NCBI RefSeq assembly: GCF_057098645.1
Contig: NZ_CM169472.1
Reading direction: 5' to 3' (one strand)
DNA: 64,000 bases
The notes under the pieces were generated by a model. That model did not search any database and was not told the origin of the DNA. It saw only the letters and a list, made by a program, of their open reading frames with translations. Shown piece after piece: positions 678 through 61,093 of this stretch; positions within the stretch are counted from its first letter, which is position 1, and each line of letters begins with the position of its first letter. The position numbers were made by a program, and so were the translations under genes.

Positions 678-748
678 AAAGAGAAAACCCCCGCACGTTG
701 AGAGGTAAAACCTGACAACAGAACGGGGGCTAATCTTGAACCATCAAC
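678..748 (-). ncRNA. rdl: Rdl-type cis-antisense RNA, copy 2; coordinates approximate
   Basis: Same relative position in LDR copy 2 (536-bp offset). Confidence 0.4.
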
Positions 749-2753: not shown

Positions 2754-3146
2754 TTACCCCAGTAACGGTACTTTTGTGGTGGCGAGTTTAATGATGATGT
2801 ACAGCACCACCAACGCCAGCGGGAAGGCAATAATGCGCGCCTGCTGACTGTGCATACGACGATAATCGAGTGCAATAAAACCCAAAACGATATAAATGAT
2901 AACTCCAAACAGCTTTTCAGTCAGCCACTGTGCCTGCCCGGAAAATGGCAGGATGTGCGCTTTAGCCATCAACGCAATGCCGCTTAACAATAACACCGTA
3001 TCGACAACCGGCGGCACAATGCGCGTCCAGCGCGCAAATGCCTGAGGATGCTTCTGATAACGTAGCCAGAAACGTAAGGTTAATAGCCCAACAGAAAGCG
3101 CGATACTAATAAGATGAACACTAAGCAGTGTAGAAAAACTTGTCAT
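2754..3146 (-). CDS. sirB2: SirB2/YchQ small inner-membrane protein
   Basis: 130-aa hydrophobic ORF, synteny. Confidence 0.85.
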   Translation of the reverse strand: MTSFSTLLSVHLISIALSVGLLTLRFWLRYQKHPQAFARWTRIVPPVVDTVLLLSGIALMAKAHILPFSGQAQWLTEKLFGVIIYIVLGFIALDYRRMHSQQARIIAFPLALVVLYIIIKLATTKVPLLG

Positions 3147-3976
3147 TGATAATAGCGGCCGAGCGTTACACGCTCGTTATCACCATAGTCACGGCAGGTT
3201 TCGACGTCATGATACCCCGCGAGGATAAATGCCTGTCGCACCGCTTCGCCCTGCTGCCAGCCATGTTCCAGAAGCAGAAAGCCGCCGGATACCAGCGCGT
3301 TACGCGACTGTTCGATGATATGCACGATGTCTGCCATTCCACTGTCTGCCGCAACCAGCGCAGTGAGCGGCTCAAAGCGGACATCGCCTTGTTGAAGATG
3401 TGGGTCCTGCTCGTCAATATACGGCGGATTGCTGACAATCATCGCAAACTGCTGCCCGGCTAGCGCGCTAAACCAGTCGCTTTGCAGAATGTGGATATTT
3501 TTGATCGCCAGATGCTGGGCATTACGTTGTGCCAGGGAGACAGCATCAGGCATACGATCTACAGCGATAATTTCGCAGTCCGGGCGCTCGCTAGCCAGCG
3601 CAAGCGCAATCGCCCCGGTACCCGTCCCGAGATCGAGAATACGGCAAGGTTGTTCAGGCAACCGCGCCAGTGCCTGCTCCACCAGACACTCCGTATCCGG
3701 GCGCGGAATTAAGGTCGCTGGCGAAACAAATAACGGCAACGACCAGAATTCTCGCACCCCGGTTAAATGAGCAATGGGTTCACCATCGCGACGACGTGTC
3801 AGTAGCGCATCAAGTTGCTGACATTGTTCGTCAGTCAGCTGCGTCTCACCAAAGGCGAGAATAAAAGTACGCCCTCTGCCGGTAACATGCTCCAGCAGGA
3901 TTTCAGCATCACGCCGCGGGCTTTCGCTCGCCTGAAGTTGGTTTATTGCTTCACGTAACCAGTATTGATATTCCAT
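3143..3976 (-). CDS. prmC: Release-factor glutamine N5-methyltransferase (HemK)
   Basis: 277 aa; motif NPPY (VSNPPYIDE); overlaps prfA stop. Confidence 0.95.
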   Translation of the reverse strand: MEYQYWLREAINQLQASESPRRDAEILLEHVTGRGRTFILAFGETQLTDEQCQQLDALLTRRRDGEPIAHLTGVREFWSLPLFVSPATLIPRPDTECLVEQALARLPEQPCRILDLGTGTGAIALALASERPDCEIIAVDRMPDAVSLAQRNAQHLAIKNIHILQSDWFSALAGQQFAMIVSNPPYIDEQDPHLQQGDVRFEPLTALVAADSGMADIVHIIEQSRNALVSGGFLLLEHGWQQGEAVRQAFILAGYHDVETCRDYGDNERVTLGRYYQ

Positions 3977-5058
3977 TATTCCTGCTCGGACAACGCCGCC
4001 AGTTGGTCGGCCTGATGTTCCTGGATAATCGGTTCAATCAGCATATCCAGCTTACCTTCCATCACTTCATCCAGGCGGTAGAGCGTCAGGTTGATGCGGT
4101 GATCGGTAACGCGCCCCTGCGGGAAATTGTAAGTACGGTTACGGTCGCTGCGATCGCCACTCCCCAACAGGTTACGACGGGTAGACGCTTCGGCCTGTTG
4201 GCGTTTTGCCATTTCAGCAGCGTGGATGCGAGCACCGAGCACTGAAAGTGCTTTAGCTTTGTTTTTATGTTGTGAACGTTCGTCCTGACATTCAACAACA
4301 ATCCCGGTCGGCAAGTGAGTAATACGAATTGCCGAATCGGTGGTGTTAACGTGCTGACCACCCGCCCCTGACGAGCGGAAAGTATCAATGCGTAAATCTG
4401 CTGGGTTGATGTCCGGCAGTTCTGCGTCAGGCAGTTCTGGCATTACCGCAACGGTACAAGCAGAAGTATGAATACGACCCTGCGATTCCGTAGCAGGAAC
4501 ACGCTGCACGCGATGACCGCCGGATTCAAATTTCAGACGACCATACACACCATCACCGCTAATTTTGGCGATGATCTCTTTATAACCACCATGTTCACCC
4601 TCGCTGGCGCTCATGATTTCTACCCGCCAGCGGCGGGCTTCGGCATAACGGCTGTACATACGGAACAGATCGCCCGCGAACAGCGCCGCTTCGTCGCCGC
4701 CGGTTCCGGCTCGGACTTCGAGGAAGGCGTTACGTTCGTCATCAGGATCTTTTGGCAGTAACAGAACCTGTAATTGCTGTTCCAGTTGCTCGCTTTTTTC
4801 TTTAGCTTCGCGCAGTTCATCCTGCGCCATCTCACGCATTTCAGGATCATCGAGCATCATCTGTGCGGTTTCGATATCTTCCTGAACCTGTTGCCAGTCG
4901 GTAAAACAGCGCGAAACATCACTTAACTGCGCATATTCGCGTGATAATGCGCGAAAACGTTCCTGGTCGGCGATAGTTTGCGCGTCACCCAGCAACGCCT
5001 GAACTTCTTCATGGCGTTCATGCAGGGCTTCCAGTTTGGCAACGATAGAAGGCTTCAT
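3976..5058 (-). CDS. prfA: Peptide chain release factor 1
   Basis: 360 aa; GGQ motif (SGAGGQHVN). Confidence 0.95.
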
Positions 5059-14191: not shown

Positions 14192-17077
14192 ATGGGCATC
14201 AAACAACACAATGGGAATACCAAAGCCGATCGTCTCGCTGAATTAAAAATCCGTTCGCCCTCAATTCAACTGATAAAATTTGGCGCTATTGGTTTGAATG
14301 CAATTATCTTTTCCCCCCTGCTGATAGCTGCTGATACAGGAAGTCAATATGGCACCAATATTACTATTAATGATGGTGACAGAATTACAGGAGATACCGC
14401 CGATCCATCAGGAAACCTCTATGGTGTAATGACCCCAGCAGGAAACACGCCTGGCAATATCAACTTGGGTAATGATGTCACCGTCAATGTCAACGACGCC
14501 TCTGGATATGCAAAAGGAATCATTATTCAGGGCAAAAACAGCTCCCTGACAGCTAACCGACTCACAGTAGATGTTGTTGGCCAAACCTCTGCCATCGGCA
14601 TTAATTTAATTGGTGACTATACCCATGCTGACTTAGGCACAGGCAGCACCATTAAGAGTAACGATGACGGCATCATTATTGGGCATAGCTCAACACTAAC
14701 AGCCACTCAATTCACCATTGAAAACTCGAACGGTATAGGCCTAACCATCAATGACTATGGCACCAGTGTCGATCTTGGAAGCGGAAGTAAAATCAAGACC
14801 GATGGAAGTACAGGTGTTTATATCGGTGGTCTCAACGGCAATAACGCCAATGGTGCTGCGCGTTTTACGGCGACAGACCTGACAATCGATGTTCAGGGAT
14901 ACAGCGCCATGGGGATAAACGTACAGAAAAACTCTGTTGTCGATCTCGGAACAAACAGTACCATTAAAACCAATGGCGATAATGCTCACGGCCTCTGGAG
15001 CTTTGGCCAGGTTAGCGCGAATGCACTCACTGTTGATGTAACTGGAGCCGCGGCCAATGGCGTCGAAGTTCGTGGTGGTACAACCACTATCGGTGCAGAT
15101 AGCCATATTTCTTCCGCGCAGGGCGGTAGTCTCGTAGCCAGTGGTTCAGACGCGACAATCAATTTTTCTGGCACGGCAGCGCAACGAAACAGCATCTTTT
15201 CCGGCGGTTCTTATGGTGCCTCGGCCCAGACGGCAACGGCTGTTATCAACATGCAAAATACCGATATTACGGTTGATCGTAATGGCAGTCTGGCGCTGGG
15301 TTTGTGGGCGCTCAGCGGCGGTAGAATAACCGGAGACAGTTTGGCTATCACCGGCGCGGCAGGAGCCAGGGGGATTTATGCCATGACCAACAGCCAGATC
15401 GACCTCACGAGCGATCTGGTCATTGATATGAGTACACCCGACCAGATGGCCATCGCAACGCAACATGACGATGGTTATGCCGCCAGCCGCATCAACGCCT
15501 CGGGTCGTATGCTTATCAACGGTAGCGTTCTTTCCAAAGGTGGGCTAATCAATCTGGATATGCACTCTGGGTCGGTTTGGACAGGTTCCTCCCTCAGCGA
15601 TAATGTCAATGGCGGGAAACTGGACGTTGCAATGAATAACAGCGTCTGGAACGTAACAAGTAATTCTAATCTCGACACGCTGGCGCTGAGCCATTCAACT
15701 GTCGATTTTGCCAGCCACGCATCAACTGCCGGCACATTTACCACATTAAACGTAGAGAACCTGAGCGGTAACAGTACCTTTATTATGCGTGCTGATGTTG
15801 TTGGCGAGGGTAATGGCGTTAATAATAAAGGGGATTTATTGAATATCAGCGGGAGTAGTGCTGGTAATCACGTATTGGCTATCCGCAACCAGGGCAGCGA
15901 GGCCACAACGGGAAATGAAGTTCTGACAGTGGTAAAAACCACTGACGGTGCGGCCTCGTTCAGCGCGTCTTCTCAGGTTGAGTTGGGGGGATATCTGTAC
16001 GATGTGCGTAAAAATGGCACTAACTGGGAGCTTTACGCTTCCGGGACAGTTCCGGAACCGACTCCTAATCCTGAACCAACACCGGCTCCCGCTCAGCCTC
16101 CCATAGTCAACCCCGATCCTACGCCTGAACCCGATCCTACGCCTAACCCCACTCCCACACCTAAACCCACCACGACCGCAGATGCTGGCGGCAATTATCT
16201 CAATGTCGGTTACTTATTAAACTATGTTGAAAACCGTACGCTGATGCAACGAATGGGTGACCTGCGAAATCAGAGTAAAGACGGTAATATCTGGCTGCGC
16301 AGTTATGGGGGAAGCCTGGACTCCTTCTCCAGTGGCAAACTGAGCGGCTTTGACATGGGTTACAGCGGTATCCAGTTTGGTGGGGATAAACGTCTCTCTG
16401 ATGAAATGCCGTTGTATGTCGGTCTGTATATTGGCTCAACACATGCATCGCCGGACTATAGCGGAGGCGACGGTACCGCACGTTCAGACTATATGGGAAT
16501 GTACGCCAGTTACATGGCACACAGCGGTTTTTACAGCGATCTCGTTGTAAAAGCATCGCGCCAGAAAAATAGTTTCCACGTACGGGACAGTCAGAACAAC
16601 GGCGTTAACGCCAACGGCACTGCGAATGGATTGAGCATCTCCCTGGAAGCCGGGCAGAGGTTCAACCTGACCCCTACTGGTTATGGGTTCTATATAGAGC
16701 CGCAAACCCAGCTCACATACAGCCACCAGAATGAGATGGCTATGAAGGCGAGTAATGGTCTCAATATACATCTGAATCACTACGAATCGCTGCTGGGGCG
16801 TGCCAGCATGATACTAGGATATGACATCACCGCAGGTAAAAGCCAGCTGAATATCTATGTGAAGACTGGCGCTATCCACGAGTTTTCAGGGGATACAGAA
16901 TATCTGTTGAACAACTCCCGGGAGAAGTACAGTTTCAAAGGTAATGGCTGGAATAATGGCGTGGGAGTCAGTGCACAGTATAACAAACAGCACACATTCT
17001 ACCTCGAAGCGGATTACACGCAGGGTAACCTCTTTGATCAGAAGCAAGTCAACGGAGGATATCGCTTCAGCTTTTAA
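14192..17077 (+). CDS. ycgV: Autotransporter adhesin (pertactin-like passenger, Pro/Thr-rich linker, C-terminal beta-barrel)
   Basis: 961 aa; linker PEPTPNPEPTPAPAQPPIVNPDPTPEPDPTPNPTPTPKPTT; C-terminal ...GGYRFSF; preceded by an ~840-bp AT-rich region. Confidence 0.85.
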   Translation: MGIKQHNGNTKADRLAELKIRSPSIQLIKFGAIGLNAIIFSPLLIAADTGSQYGTNITINDGDRITGDTADPSGNLYGVMTPAGNTPGNINLGNDVTVNVNDASGYAKGIIIQGKNSSLTANRLTVDVVGQTSAIGINLIGDYTHADLGTGSTIKSNDDGIIIGHSSTLTATQFTIENSNGIGLTINDYGTSVDLGSGSKIKTDGSTGVYIGGLNGNNANGAARFTATDLTIDVQGYSAMGINVQKNSVVDLGTNSTIKTNGDNAHGLWSFGQVSANALTVDVTGAAANGVEVRGGTTTIGADSHISSAQGGSLVASGSDATINFSGTAAQRNSIFSGGSYGASAQTATAVINMQNTDITVDRNGSLALGLWALSGGRITGDSLAITGAAGARGIYAMTNSQIDLTSDLVIDMSTPDQMAIATQHDDGYAASRINASGRMLINGSVLSKGGLINLDMHSGSVWTGSSLSDNVNGGKLDVAMNNSVWNVTSNSNLDTLALSHSTVDFASHASTAGTFTTLNVENLSGNSTFIMRADVVGEGNGVNNKGDLLNISGSSAGNHVLAIRNQGSEATTGNEVLTVVKTTDGAASFSASSQVELGGYLYDVRKNGTNWELYASGTVPEPTPNPEPTPAPAQPPIVNPDPTPEPDPTPNPTPTPKPTTTADAGGNYLNVGYLLNYVENRTLMQRMGDLRNQSKDGNIWLRSYGGSLDSFSSGKLSGFDMGYSGIQFGGDKRLSDEMPLYVGLYIGSTHASPDYSGGDGTARSDYMGMYASYMAHSGFYSDLVVKASRQKNSFHVRDSQNNGVNANGTANGLSISLEAGQRFNLTPTGYGFYIEPQTQLTYSHQNEMAMKASNGLNIHLNHYESLLGRASMILGYDITAGKSQLNIYVKTGAIHEFSGDTEYLLNNSREKYSFKGNGWNNGVGVSAQYNKQHTFYLEADYTQGNLFDQKQVNGGYRFSF

Positions 17078-51786: not shown

Positions 51787-51982
51787 GTTCACAGATAAAA
51801 CACTCTCCAGGAAATCCGGGGCGGTTCATTTTGTTGAGTCCATGCCCCCTTTATAAGTAATCCCCCCGGCAAAAATGCCGCGACGGGATTTTACCGAACG
51901 CAGGAAAGCCACTGGAATTCTCCCGTAAGGGATTGTTATATTATAACAGTTCATCGTACTCATTCTGAACAGGAGACTACCA

Positions 51983-52384
51983 ATGAAAATCAAGAGCATC
52001 AGTAAGGCTGTATTGCTGCTTGCACTGCTAACCTCCACGAGCTTTGCTGCGGGTAAGAATGTCAATGTTGAGTTCAGAAAAGGCCATAGCAGCGCTCAGT
52101 ACTCCGGCGAAATAAAGGGATACGATTACGATACATATACCTTCTATGCCAAAAAAGGTCAGAAAGTGCATGTGAGTATCTCTAATGAAGGCGCTGATAC
52201 TTACCTCTTCGGGCCAGGAATCGATGATTCTGTTGATTTATCCAGATATTCCCCTGAACTCGATAGTCACGGACAATACTCACTCCCTGCTTCTGGCAAA
52301 TATGAGCTGCGAGTGCTGCAAACCCGAAACGACGCCCGTAAAAACAAAACTAAAAAATATAACGTCGATATTCAAATTAAGTAA
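51983..52384 (+). CDS. pliG: Periplasmic inhibitor of g-type lysozyme
   Basis: 133 aa with signal peptide; conserved position between ycgL and ycgJ. Confidence 0.7.
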
Positions 52385-52856
52385 ATGTCAACCGACGGGG
52401 AGTCTCCCCGTCATAAACGTTGACGCCCCACTCCTCTCTGTCGCTCAAGAGGTTAATGACGAATAGAACATAATGTAAACAAGACATCACTCACGACACA
52501 TAAATAACATCTTTGTGGTGGTTTGATTGATTTTTCCACTCCGCTTACCATCTACACCAAAATAACGATCATCACGGCATAATTTTTCTTTAACATCGCA
52601 AAATACACCGTTAGCGAATGTAAATTCGCTGGGATCGTAGCCTTGTAATGATTGTAAGTTTTCAGCGGCTTTTTCGCCGAGATATTTCCTTGTTAACTCT
52701 GGGGAAATGCCATCTGAGTTCACACAAATATACGGGTCGCAAACAACGCCGCACGCCGGAGATTGAAGTCCGCCAGCGTCATGTCCAGACGCCATTGATG
52801 AGAACATCATTAGACTGGCCCCCTGAATCTCCAGACAACCAGTATCACTTAAATAA

Positions 52857-53267
52857 GTGATAGTCTTAATACTAGTTTTTAGACTAGTCATTGGAGAACA
52901 GATGATTGATGTCTTAGGGCCGGAGAAACGCAGACGGCGTACCACACAGGAAAAGATCGCAATTGTTCAGCAGAGCTTTGAACCGGGGATGACGGTCTCC
53001 CTCGTTGCCCGGCAACATGGTGTAGCAGCCAGCCAGTTATTTCTCTGGCGTAAGCAATACCAGGAAGGAAGTCTTACTGCTGTGGCCGCCGGAGAACAGG
53101 TTGTTCCTGCCTCTGAACTTGCTGCCGCCATGAAGCAGATTAAAGAACTCCAGCGCCTGCTCGGCAAGAAAACGATGGAAAATGAACTCCTCAAAGAAGC
53201 CGTTGAATATGGACGGGCAAAAAAGTGGATAGCGCACGCGCCCTTATTGCCCGGGGATGGGGAGTAA
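52857..53267 (+). CDS. insC: IS2 transposase InsC
   Basis: 136 aa [26 protein letters not shown]... Confidence 0.95.
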
Positions 53268-54130
53268 GCTTAGTCAGCCGTTGTCTCCGGGTGTCGCGTG
53301 CGCAGTTGCACGTCATTCTCAGACGAACCGATGACTGGATGGATGGCCGCCGCAGTCGTCACACTGATGATACGGATGTGCTTCTCCGTATACACCATGT
53401 TATCGGAGAGCTGCCCACGTATGGTTATCGTCGGGTATGGGCGCTGCTTCGCAGACAGGCAGAACTTGATGGTATGCCTGCGATCAATGCCAAACGTGTT
53501 TACCGGATCATGCGCCAGAATGCGCTGTTGCTTGAGCGAAAACCTGCTGTACCGCCATCGAAACGGGCACATACAGGCAGAGTGGCCGTGAAAGAAAGCA
53601 ATCAGCGATGGTGCTCTGACGGGTTCGAGTTCTGCTGTGATAACGGAGAGAGACTGCGTGTCACGTTCGCGCTGGACTGCTGTGATCGTGAGGCACTGCA
53701 CTGGGCGGTGACTACCGGCGGCTTCAACAGTGAAACAGTACAGGACGTCATGCTGGGAGCGGTGGAACGCCGCTTCGGCAACGATCTTCCGTCGTCTCCA
53801 GTGGAGTGGCTGACGGATAATGGTTCATGCTACCGGGCTAATGAAACACGCCAGTTCGCCCGGATGTTGGGACTTGAACCGAAGAACACGGCGGTGCGGA
53901 GTCCGGAGAGTAACGGAATAGCAGAGAGCTTCGTGAAAACGATAAAGCGTGACTACATCAGTATCATGCCCAAACCAGACGGGTTAACGGCAGCAAAGAA
54001 CCTTGCAGAGGCGTTCGAGCATTATAACGAATGGCATCCGCATAGTGCGCTGGGTTATCGCTCGCCACGGGAATATCTGCGGCAGCGGGCTTGTAATGGG
54101 TTAAGTGATAACAGATGTCTGGAAATATAG
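53225..54130 (+). CDS. insD: IS2 transposase InsD (-1 frame)
   Basis: 301 aa, DDE integrase-like. Confidence 0.95.
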
Positions 54131-54710
54131 GGGCAAATCCAATCATCCCCACACCTGACAATCCGATATAAAAAATACGCATCATATTCATAGCACATCC
54201 TGATAATCCAACCGTACAACACTTATGCTCATTTCATCATCAATCCGTAATCAAAACCGCTGACCTGGACGAGTTACGATGACCTGACAGAAGTATCAGA
54301 CGTCTTCTGCGGTTTCTATGATAGAGCAATTCTGTGGCGGATATTAAGATAACGGGTATCTGTTCTTTAATGATGCTGCAAAAAATGGAAAGTTAAGAAA
54401 GCCTGGCGTGGTGAAAAAATACACTTGCCTCAATACTGGATATTTAAACAGGTCTGAAGATGCTGTCACGATTAGGGTGCGGAAAAAGGAAGCGTAAATA
54501 AGAACAATCAAAAGTACGACGGCAATGGGTTGATTGACAAGGGTATTTTTTAAGCTATGAATCAGCGCCATTTATCACAGAATAGACTTTTACTCTGAAT
54601 AAATGGGAGGGTGACTTGCCTCAATATAATCCAGACTATAACATGCCTTATAGTCTTCGGAACATCATCGCGCGCTGGCGATGATTAATAGCTAATTGAG
54701 TAAGGCCAGG

Positions 54711-56883: not shown

Positions 56884-57327
56884 TCAGAACGACCAGTTCA
56901 CACCAGCCACCGCATTCCACGGGGATTCCACACCAGCACCACGGCTATACCCCACCCCGAGATGCCCGCTTAACGTACTGCTGAATGAGGCTTTAATACC
57001 TGCCTGGTATATTCCACGTCTGCCCGACAAATCATTGACGAAATTACCATCATTATTCACTTTCACCCGGTTATCATCGACAAATTCTTTGCGCACAGCC
57101 GCCTTCAGCCACGGCTCAACTTCCATACCGTTCCCCAGACGCATGTTGTAACTCAGCGTTGCACCCAGTTCACGATATATACTGCGGGTATCGACTGATT
57201 TCGATTCCATGCCATTGGATAAATGATAGTAGCGTCTAAGTGACCTTAGCTCGGCTGCAACATCAGCCCGCAGGCACCAGACCAGGGGATTCATCCTGAA
57301 GAGACAGCGCAGGTGTATTGTGTTCAC
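56884..57327 (-). pseudogene. Autotransporter beta-domain remnant (C-terminal fragment only)
   Basis: 147-aa ORF ending ...VAGVNWSF with no passenger domain or signal peptide upstream. Confidence 0.5.
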
Positions 57328-58542: not shown

Positions 58543-61093
58543 TCAGAACTTATATTTCAGGCCCACCATCACTGCGGTGTCATTGTAGCCATTATCACCC
58601 AGCTGCACGCCCACATTACCCCAGACGCTGGCCGCCGGATTCAGATTGCCATTTACGCCAAGTTTAATTTCCCCCAGATTACGCGCCCCCTCTTGTTCGA
58701 CTTTCACACCGTTCATTGAGACAGCAAAATCTTTACTGTTATGGATCCAGTTCATTTCAACAAAAGGTTCAAAGTCGTCACCGTGCGGACCGCTGTTTTT
58801 CTCCTGAGTACGAATAAAAGTGCGGAAACCAAGTCGGGTCTGGATGTTGTTATTTGCGTCATTCTCAATACGTGAGCCATTGGCTTCGGTGTGCGCATTA
58901 TGATCGACGCCCATCCAGATAGCCTGTGCCTGTGGCTGGAAGATCCACGTATATTTCGCCGCTTCCAGACCAAAGGATTTATTCAGGGCAAAGCCGTAAC
59001 CCGCTTCCAGCGAGACGGTTGCGCCTTTCGCGCTATAGGATTCATAGGCTAATTCATCCCCTTTCACCGAGTTTTTAAACCAGCTATATTGCGCCCAGGC
59101 GTCAATGTATGCGCCTTTTTTACTGATGTCATCGGCAAACCAGGTGGCATACAGCCCTGCGCTATAGCCTCTGACACTCCCTTTCGAACGATAATCCGAC
59201 ACGCTGGAATGAGTTGAGTTGTAGTCGCGGGCATAACCAGCCATCACTCCCAAACGCCAACTGTCACTGTCGGTAAAACCACCGGTTAACAGATCGGCCC
59301 CTAACTGCGAGACGTAGCGATGCGAGGTCGTTCTCAACTGTCCGTTGCTGTCACGCCAGGCATTATGCCCGCCAATTTGACGTAGCCAAAGTCGGCTTGA
59401 ACGCTCCTGTTCAGTTACAGGATCGATGTAACGCGTTTCACCTGCACGATCGTTCAGACGCATAACAAAAAGAGTGTTAGCGGCTGCCAGGTTGGCGACG
59501 TAACTTCCAGCTTCGGGGCGCAGGACGGGGGTAGGCGCAACAGTAGGCGCTGAACTTCCTCCGGAGTTTGTTTCACCGCCGCTCGTTGCCTGGAAGTTAG
59601 TCAGATACCAGTTTTTATTGGTCGCTTCGGTATTACCTCGGGTTAATGAATATTCGTAGGCACCGGCGAAAATCCTCGAATCCTTAATAAATTCTCCATT
59701 TGATTCCCCCTCAACGCTGATAATCTCTATCCCATTTAACGTATAAGCCCCGCTGCCGCCAGCATTGGTAACTTTAACTCGGGTTGTTCCAGAGGTATTT
59801 CCATTAATAACGACTTTATCCGTAGCTGAATTATCATCACCCAATTCAGTTCTGAGATGCAATACGCCATTATTACCAACGTAATTTTCAGTTATTGTTA
59901 ATCTTGTTGGTTCGAAATCCTTTCCATCTGCCCGGGAAATATAGACCGTACTATTGTCAACCGTGAGCTTGCTCACCGTTGAGTCAGCTTTAATATCCCA
60001 GGTACTATTATCTGAAAGCGACAGATAGGTATGAGTGTTATCATCTGTTGAAAGATTGGCTGAACCCGTTATTTTTGAATCAGTTGCATAGACGGTCAAA
60101 TGACCTTTAATATTATTGATAAAAACATCTGCAGCCGATGATACCTCACTATCAGTAATGGTCACGTTACTCGTCTCATTTTTATTGTAGAGGATTTCAT
60201 TTGCTGACCGTAGTGAGCTACCAGATAAAATATCTACCGTTGCTTCCTGACCATTTATGGAAGACTCCAGCACAACTCCAGCCCCCTGATGCGCGACTGC
60301 AAATGTATTTTTCAGCGTCACCGTGCCGCCATTATAAATTTTAGCAATCGCGGCGTCAGGACCCGTTGTATAAATTTCTCCCTGGTTAAATGAAACTGTC
60401 CCCTGGCGAGCAGCGATGGCATGAGCATTGTCCCCAACTTTCTGTTCCGTGGGTTGTTATCTCCCCTTTTGCCATATCCAGTATTGCTTTGGCGCTATTT
60501 TCATTATTTCCTGTATCGGCAGTGCTTTCTTCATCAAGAGAAGATACACACGCACGAGCGCTTCCGGGAGATGCACACGCAAGAACGCCGACTGCGTGAT
60601 TACCCGCAGTAACAATAAAAGTATTATCTCCGTCAGAAAAAGAGGGGGTAACCGAACCGTCAGAGTTGACTCTTATTATGGTATCAGTATTCAGGTTTCC
60701 ACTCGTTTGACTTAGCAAACCAATTGAGTAATCCCCCGTTGTGACAATCGTATTATTACCCCGCAAAGTGACAGCACCGCCATATTCACTTACGACTGCG
60801 CTAGCTGTATATGCTTTGCTTAGAGGACTATTGTCAGAAGGATATAAACCGCCCGTTGTTACAATGACGCCATTGTTAATGGCTAAATTGCTACCCTCTC
60901 CTGCAACGGATACACCGTAACTTCCATTACCCGTTGTTATAACTAGCGCATTATCAATATCTTTTACTTCTCCATCTTTTATTTCCACAGCATGTTTATA
61001 CTCATCGTGATGAATAAACTAATCAGCATATGCATTACCCACCGCCAGAGCAATAAGTCCTAAACTAAACCCGGGGAGTTTTTTCAGTTTCAT
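58543..61093 (-). pseudogene. ycgH: Autotransporter (ycgH-like) with in-frame TAG after the signal peptide and a frameshift
   Basis: ATG 61093 then signal peptide MKLKKLPGFSLGLIALAVGNAYAD then TAG at 61019-61021; ORF 60386-60988 is in the same frame; ORF 58543-60321 is in a different frame; C-terminal beta-barrel ...VGLKYKF. Confidence 0.75.

Follow-up and report, generated by a model that had tools for sequence, protein, structure and literature searches.

In Escherichia coli K-12, ycgH is tabulated as 'pseudogene- autotransporter' (PMC4447067), and this table entry is all that a search of the full-text literature on the ycgH autotransporter and on natural amber suppressors returned. For E. 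coli O145:H28, a comparative study described loss-of-function mutations as common in adhesin and autotransporter genes, and reported IS insertions in ehaA/ehaB of several strains (PMC9144400). Here we analyzed a stretch of 64,000 nucleotides (the window) from contig NZ_CM169472.1 of RefSeq assembly GCF_057098645.1, and conclude with high confidence that its segment 58543-61093 is what remains, in non-functional form, of the gene for a type Va, AIDA-I-like autotransporter adhesin; the chromosome is of the E. coli O145:H28 type, and the site is its ycgH locus.

Identity and domain content of the remnant

The autotransporter pseudogene lies between ymgF and ymgD, a position that in K-12 is the ycgH locus, and the genes on either side are alike in the window, RM13514, XJ34, GPT24-02, 06-00048, and K-12. 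Synteny together with 98.6-99% identity to intact members identifies it as an ortholog at this locus. In RM13514, which carries the identical sequence, PGAP annotates a pseudogene ('frameshifted; internal stop') with boundaries equal to 58543-61093, and 24 complete records of E. coli, almost all labelled O145 or O145:H28 (RM13514, RM13516, and RM12581, for example), match a 3.1-kb region at 100% identity. The family name 'ECIAI39_1904' rests on the PGAP annotation, because the NCBIfam library searched holds no HMM of that name. The ycgH-locus pseudogene is an ordinary one, previously annotated in public records and already known. A preliminary description, made from the letters and open reading frames of the window, had recognized a decayed ycgH-like autotransporter here, and the PGAP annotation, the alignment to XJ34, the K-12 locus, and the Pfam domains all uphold that reading (Table 1).

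Table 1 Coordinates of the ycgH-locus pseudogene, its parts and lesions, and the second amber codon in the window.
Feature	Position	Strand	Basis
Whole pseudogene, 'ECIAI39_1904 family' adhesin, 2551 bp (intact: 2649 bp)	58543..61093	-	RM13514 PGAP boundaries, XJ34 alignment
Putative Sec-type signal peptide, codons 1-23, MKLKKLPGFSLGLIALAVGNAYA, A-Y-A cleavage motif	61025..61093	-	Read from sequence
Amber TAG, codon 25; CAG (Gln25) in intact alleles	61019..61021	-	CAG in XJ34, GPT24-02, and 06-00048
Deletion junction; gene nt 658-755 (codons 220-252) lost, frame shift +1	60436..60437	-	XJ34 alignment
Out-of-frame read-on WGQCSCHRCSPGDSFI, then TAA 60386-60388	60386..60435	-	Translation compared with the intact protein
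C-terminal part, 630 codons in the homologous frame: rest of passenger, autochaperone, linker, beta-barrel	58543..60435	-	Translation
Autochaperone domain type 1 (AC_1, PF18883), overlapping Pertactin PF03212	59644..59982	-	Residues 114-226 of the 592-aa ORF, E=3.4e-30
Autotransporter beta-barrel translocator (PF03797; TIGR01414)	58612..59391	-	PF03797, E=2.2e-41
Amber TAG (from CAG) in the TonB-dependent receptor gene 29270-31240	30536..30538	+	CAG in RM13514

The domains expected of a type Va autotransporter are retained in the C-terminal part. The beta-barrel is recognized by PF03797, whose match spans profile positions 1-254 of 255, and by TIGR01414 (374.8 bits, cut-off 16), and upstream of the barrel the passenger contains an autochaperone/pertactin-like beta-helix, recognized by AC_1 and by Pertactin PF03212 (E=5.3e-10 in the 592-aa ORF). 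The N-terminal 200-aa ORF alone gave no Pfam or NCBIfam match, and an Rfam scan gave none inside the pseudogene or adjoining it. The single uninterrupted frame of the family is broken twice, by the TAG at codon 25 and by a frameshifting deletion of 98 bp, and the locus is a pseudogene of the type Va family, not a functional member.

Lesions, distribution, and consequence for the adhesin

The gene of strain XJ34 (2649 bp, 882 aa), which occupies the same chromosomal place, served as the intact reference for mapping the lesions. Alignment to it revealed 34 substitutions, including a C>T at 61021, and one gap of 98 bp; exactly two of these differences are disabling, the change of CAG to TAG at codon 25 and the 98-bp deletion. 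Such an alignment to intact orthologs had been proposed along with the preliminary description, and it confirms decay by two lesions. Measured against the intact orthologs, the ORF pattern at 58543-61093 is one of real lesions and not of chance ORFs. Conceptual repair, with CAG and the 98 bp restored, yields a protein of 882 aa in which 19/882 residues are unlike XJ34.

Translation from the ATG at 61093 (minus strand) reads MKLKKLPGFSLGLIALAVGNAYAD and then meets the TAG at 61019-61021. By eye, the putative signal peptide MKLKKLPGFSLGLIALAVGNAYA has an n-h-c layout and an AxA site, with D after the cleavage site, and the intact XJ34 and GPT24-02 proteins begin with exactly this peptide. The preliminary description had likewise read a signal peptide from this start codon, and translation agrees with its placement of the TAG in the frame of the 200-aa ORF (60386-60988). 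The change at codon 25 is a transition, with T in place of C at 61021 on the coding strand.

The second lesion had been described as a frameshift between 60321 and 60386. A frameshift is present, but it is not in that interval; it is the 98-bp deletion, whose junction at 60437/60436 lies 50 nt upstream of the stop of the N-terminal ORF. The upstream ORF seems to end at 60386 because of out-of-frame read-on past the deletion: the first base of the W codon of this read-on is 60436, and the '200-aa ORF' owes its final 16 residues (WGQCSCHRCSPGDSFI) to it. The 592-aa C-terminal part (58543-60321) was correctly said to lie in another frame than the 200-aa ORF and to have a beta-barrel ending ...GLKYKF, but that ORF counts from its first GTG, while the homologous frame runs for 630 codons from 60435. 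The endpoints of the deletion share 1 bp of microhomology, and a search for direct repeats at both ends found none; both findings favor an illegitimate deletion over a reversible switch.

The distribution of the allele was determined by searching a collection of 20,395 records (5,426 complete E. coli genomes) with the gene's first 800 bp. The two-lesion allele was recovered as a single 100% piece in 26/20,395 records, comprising the O145:H28 group and a few unlabelled strains, and the 98 bp are missing at the ycgH locus in every one of them. The 34 other full-coverage matches listed consist of two or three alignment pieces and include the 98 bp. CAG at codon 25 and the 98 bp are both present in GPT24-02, XJ34, and 06-00048, whose alleles are among the closest to that of the window. 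Judged by these comparisons, both autotransporter lesions are derived and are fixed in the O145:H28-type lineage, for which the two could act as a marker. Strain 06-00048 carries a 1-bp deletion at nt 505 and is labelled 'frameshifted' by PGAP; as read from the alleles, the gene at the ycgH locus is lost independently in K-12 and in 06-00048, by other lesions. The exact route of adhesin loss in the O145:H28 lineage is now described, as Gln25 to amber plus a 98-bp deletion in 26 complete records, and losses at the ycgH locus fit the frequent loss-of-function in adhesins and autotransporters published for Shiga-toxin-producing E. coli (PMC9144400).

The intact 882-aa product would consist of a signal peptide for Sec export, a passenger that folds as a beta-helix and includes an autochaperone, a linker, and a beta-barrel of the 12-strand type. 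In the O145:H28-type lineage, an ordinary spontaneous C-to-T change converted Gln25 (CAG), close behind the signal peptide, to TAG, and an illegitimate deletion of 98 bp in the passenger shifted the frame. Translation from the native start then stops after 24 residues, products of restarts would lack the signal peptide, and products of read-through would run into the frameshift. Type Va secretion needs a signal peptide, and we infer from the reading frames that an exported adhesin cannot be made from the ycgH-locus remnant. No data contradict the reading of the gene as dead. Transcription of the remnant may nevertheless persist, since sigma-S RNA polymerase is reported to bind the promoter region of K-12 ycgH (PMC4447067).

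This binding of sigma-S polymerase in K-12, and a C-terminal frame open for 630 codons, would also suit a split locus that is phase-variable or partly functional, either with the C-terminal 630 codons acting as a lone translocator or with a deletion that can be reversed. We consider this very improbable. A long open frame is expected in a recently inactivated gene, and the C-terminal part has no signal peptide and, by what is established for type Va secretion, could not reach the outer membrane. As for phase variation, a microhomology of 1 bp provides no repeat tract for reversible slippage, and a reversible deletion is at odds with the absence of the 98 bp from the locus in all 26 records.

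Two amber codons and stop-codon decoding

A second gene interrupted by an amber codon had also been claimed for the window, correctly: the TonB-dependent receptor gene, part of a modD / iron ABC-transporter cluster, has TAG at codon 430 of the ORF from 29249, against CAG in RM13514. The receptor segment with the TAG has no 100% match in the 5,426 complete genomes, including the 26 allele-bearers, the best match being 99.9%. On this comparison the receptor amber is private to the window's strain, whereas the autotransporter amber is lineage-wide, and since the one TAG is found in no genome and the other in 26 records, the two are independent events of different age. The receptor TAG may have arisen very recently, or it may reflect a sequencing error.

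The presence of two ambers had been offered as a hint that the strain carries an amber suppressor tRNA, by which genes with TAG would be partly read through and their interruption tolerated. Both TAG codons derive from CAG (Gln), and a supE-type tRNA-Gln (CUA) would reinsert Gln at each; moreover, the 64-kb window contains no tRNA genes, and a suppressor could be encoded elsewhere. We nevertheless consider a suppressor highly unlikely, for reasons that concern the lesions, the decoding machinery, and the mutational routes to a stop codon.

With regard to the lesions, the autotransporter also has an out-of-frame deletion, so read-through of its TAG could not restore it; the 98-bp frameshift is beyond the rescue of any suppressor. 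The different ages of the two TAGs (26 records against none) also speak against suppression. Among the other PGAP-flagged pseudogenes in ~139 kb of RM13514 none is a nonsense pseudogene, all being frameshifts, truncations, or IS insertions.

With regard to decoding, prfA lies within the window (3976-5058, minus strand), next to prmC (3143-3976, minus strand), and encodes release factor 1 (RF1), which recognizes UAG; its protein is identical to that of K-12 MG1655 and thus wild type. RM13514 has the same autotransporter TAG, and its glnX, glnV, glnW, and glnU anticodons are CTG, CTG, TTG, and TTG, so that both glnV and glnX retain the ordinary CTG. The screen for suppressor alleles covered supE, supF, supD, and supP. 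Across the 5,426-genome collection, supF was found in 0 records; supP had no 100% match over its full length, and the 7 records that reach at least 99% are inferred to be partial matches; and supD occurred in 1 record, DSM 498, an unrelated strain of 4.64 Mb. The supE allele was present in 155 records, and the 60 matches listed are strains of 4.5-4.8 Mb, nearly all of them recognizable K-12 laboratory derivatives; the allele was not found in RM13514, the one genome directly checked among the 26 allele-bearing records.

With regard to mutational routes, all single-base routes to a stop codon were enumerated in 51 intact regional genes and in the two interrupted genes. Under uniform, ts:tv = 2, and GC>AT-biased models the expected amber share of nonsense changes is 36-45%, and two of two would be amber by chance 13-20% of the time; a model of transitions only raises the amber share to 55% and the chance of two of two to about 30%. 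Among the transitions that create a stop codon in the genes enumerated, CAG to TAG is the commonest.

The suppressor hint is thus unsupported, given the deletion, the differing age of the two codons, the expected amber share, RF1, and the tRNA alleles of the O145:H28 genomes checked. We are nearly certain that mutation bias and codon usage account for the stop being amber and that it is not a sign of suppression, and the co-occurrence of ambers in the autotransporter and the receptor is, with the same assurance, to be put down to coincidence. It is conceivable, though barely so, that a natural amber suppressor elsewhere in the strain's genome keeps the TonB-dependent receptor partly functional; even if that were true, the autotransporter TAG would be irrelevant, as the gene is dead anyway. 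We find no evidence of altered stop-codon decoding. Least probable of all is that the autotransporter lesions are sequencing or assembly errors in a gene that is truly intact: a single-base difference seen only in the window is the receptor TAG, which bears on the receptor site alone, while both autotransporter lesions are identical in 26 independently assembled complete records, and a 98-bp deletion is untypical of base-calling errors.

The wider window and comparison with known autotransporters

The window was mapped to RM13514 by BLAST, which gave about 45 point differences and differing IS positions. Strict collinearity of the two was rejected, as IS elements stand at different positions. 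Most of the point differences fall around 513-906, as expected for a repeated locus; near chaA, Rfam places two rdlD antitoxin RNAs of ldr/rdl type I toxin-antitoxin repeats (147-212 and 682-747, minus strand), and it places the sRNA C0299 at 47435-47513 (minus strand). Two IS3-family insertions, at 50521-51828 and 52812-54141, have no counterpart at the corresponding positions of RM13514: one, resembling IS1203/IS629, sits in the ycgL-pliG spacer and has an ALIL frameshift pseudoknot at 50854-50970, and the other, an IS2-like copy inside ycgJ, disrupts that gene. The IS arrangement of 49500-53500 was found in no record of the collection.

Other genes of the window also vary. In the regions 34201-35871 and ~36587-37900, the cvrA gene is noted by PGAP as missing its C-terminus and is adjoined by an inserted segment with hypothetical proteins. 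Compared with RM13514, a 442-aa hypothetical gene there has lost 12 bp in frame at 36994, and the IS copy that RM13514 has there is absent. An autotransporter ORF at the ycgV position (14192-17077, plus strand, 961 aa) is uninterrupted, whereas the RM13514 copy is split by an IS3-family insertion. At 56884-57228 (minus strand) lies a ycgI-like remnant, in which only the final ~115 codons of the beta-barrel of an autotransporter are left. Because a full-length autotransporter resembling ypjA/EhaD occupies that position in XJ34, the ycgI-like remnant marks another adhesin loss, older than that at the ycgH locus and about 1.3 kb away from it.

Set against described families, the ycgH-locus gene shares the C-terminal architecture of autochaperone, linker, and beta-barrel with AIDA-I, MisL, the ECSE_1600 family, and YfaL/EhaC. 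Alignments to NCBIfam models of the AIDA-I type cover the C-terminal ~450-540 residues (E=1e-54 to 1e-138), and the likeness is mainly C-terminal. Even the intact XJ34 protein scores below the curated cut-offs of AIDA-I (322 vs 1200 bits), MisL (404 vs 1297 bits), and ECSE_1600 (456 vs 2335 bits); among the NCBIfam models, the cut-offs of the named families (AIDA-I, MisL, ECSE_1600, and YfaL/EhaC) were not reached, and only the generic TIGR01414 was passed. By its predicted architecture, the protein is a classical AIDA-I-type autotransporter.

The nearest intact counterparts, WP_252359680.1 (XJ34) and WP_252151481.1 (GPT24-02), are annotated as 882-aa proteins and stand among like neighbors at 98.6-99% nucleotide identity; their genes have CAG at codon 25 and the 98 bp. 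With K-12 ycgH (b4491, annotated pseudogene) the remnant has in common the locus order pdeG-ymgF-[gene]-ymgD-ymgG, the same putative signal peptide, and a near-identical linker and beta-barrel, and both genes are inactivated by one in-frame stop and one frameshift. The lesions themselves differ, however: in K-12 the passenger contains a TAA, and 1 bp is deleted close to the 3' end of the gene. The passenger of K-12 also belongs to a divergent allele, which departs from XJ34 by 682 substitutions and many indels. Since both the lesions and the passenger allele differ, the two inactivations are independent.
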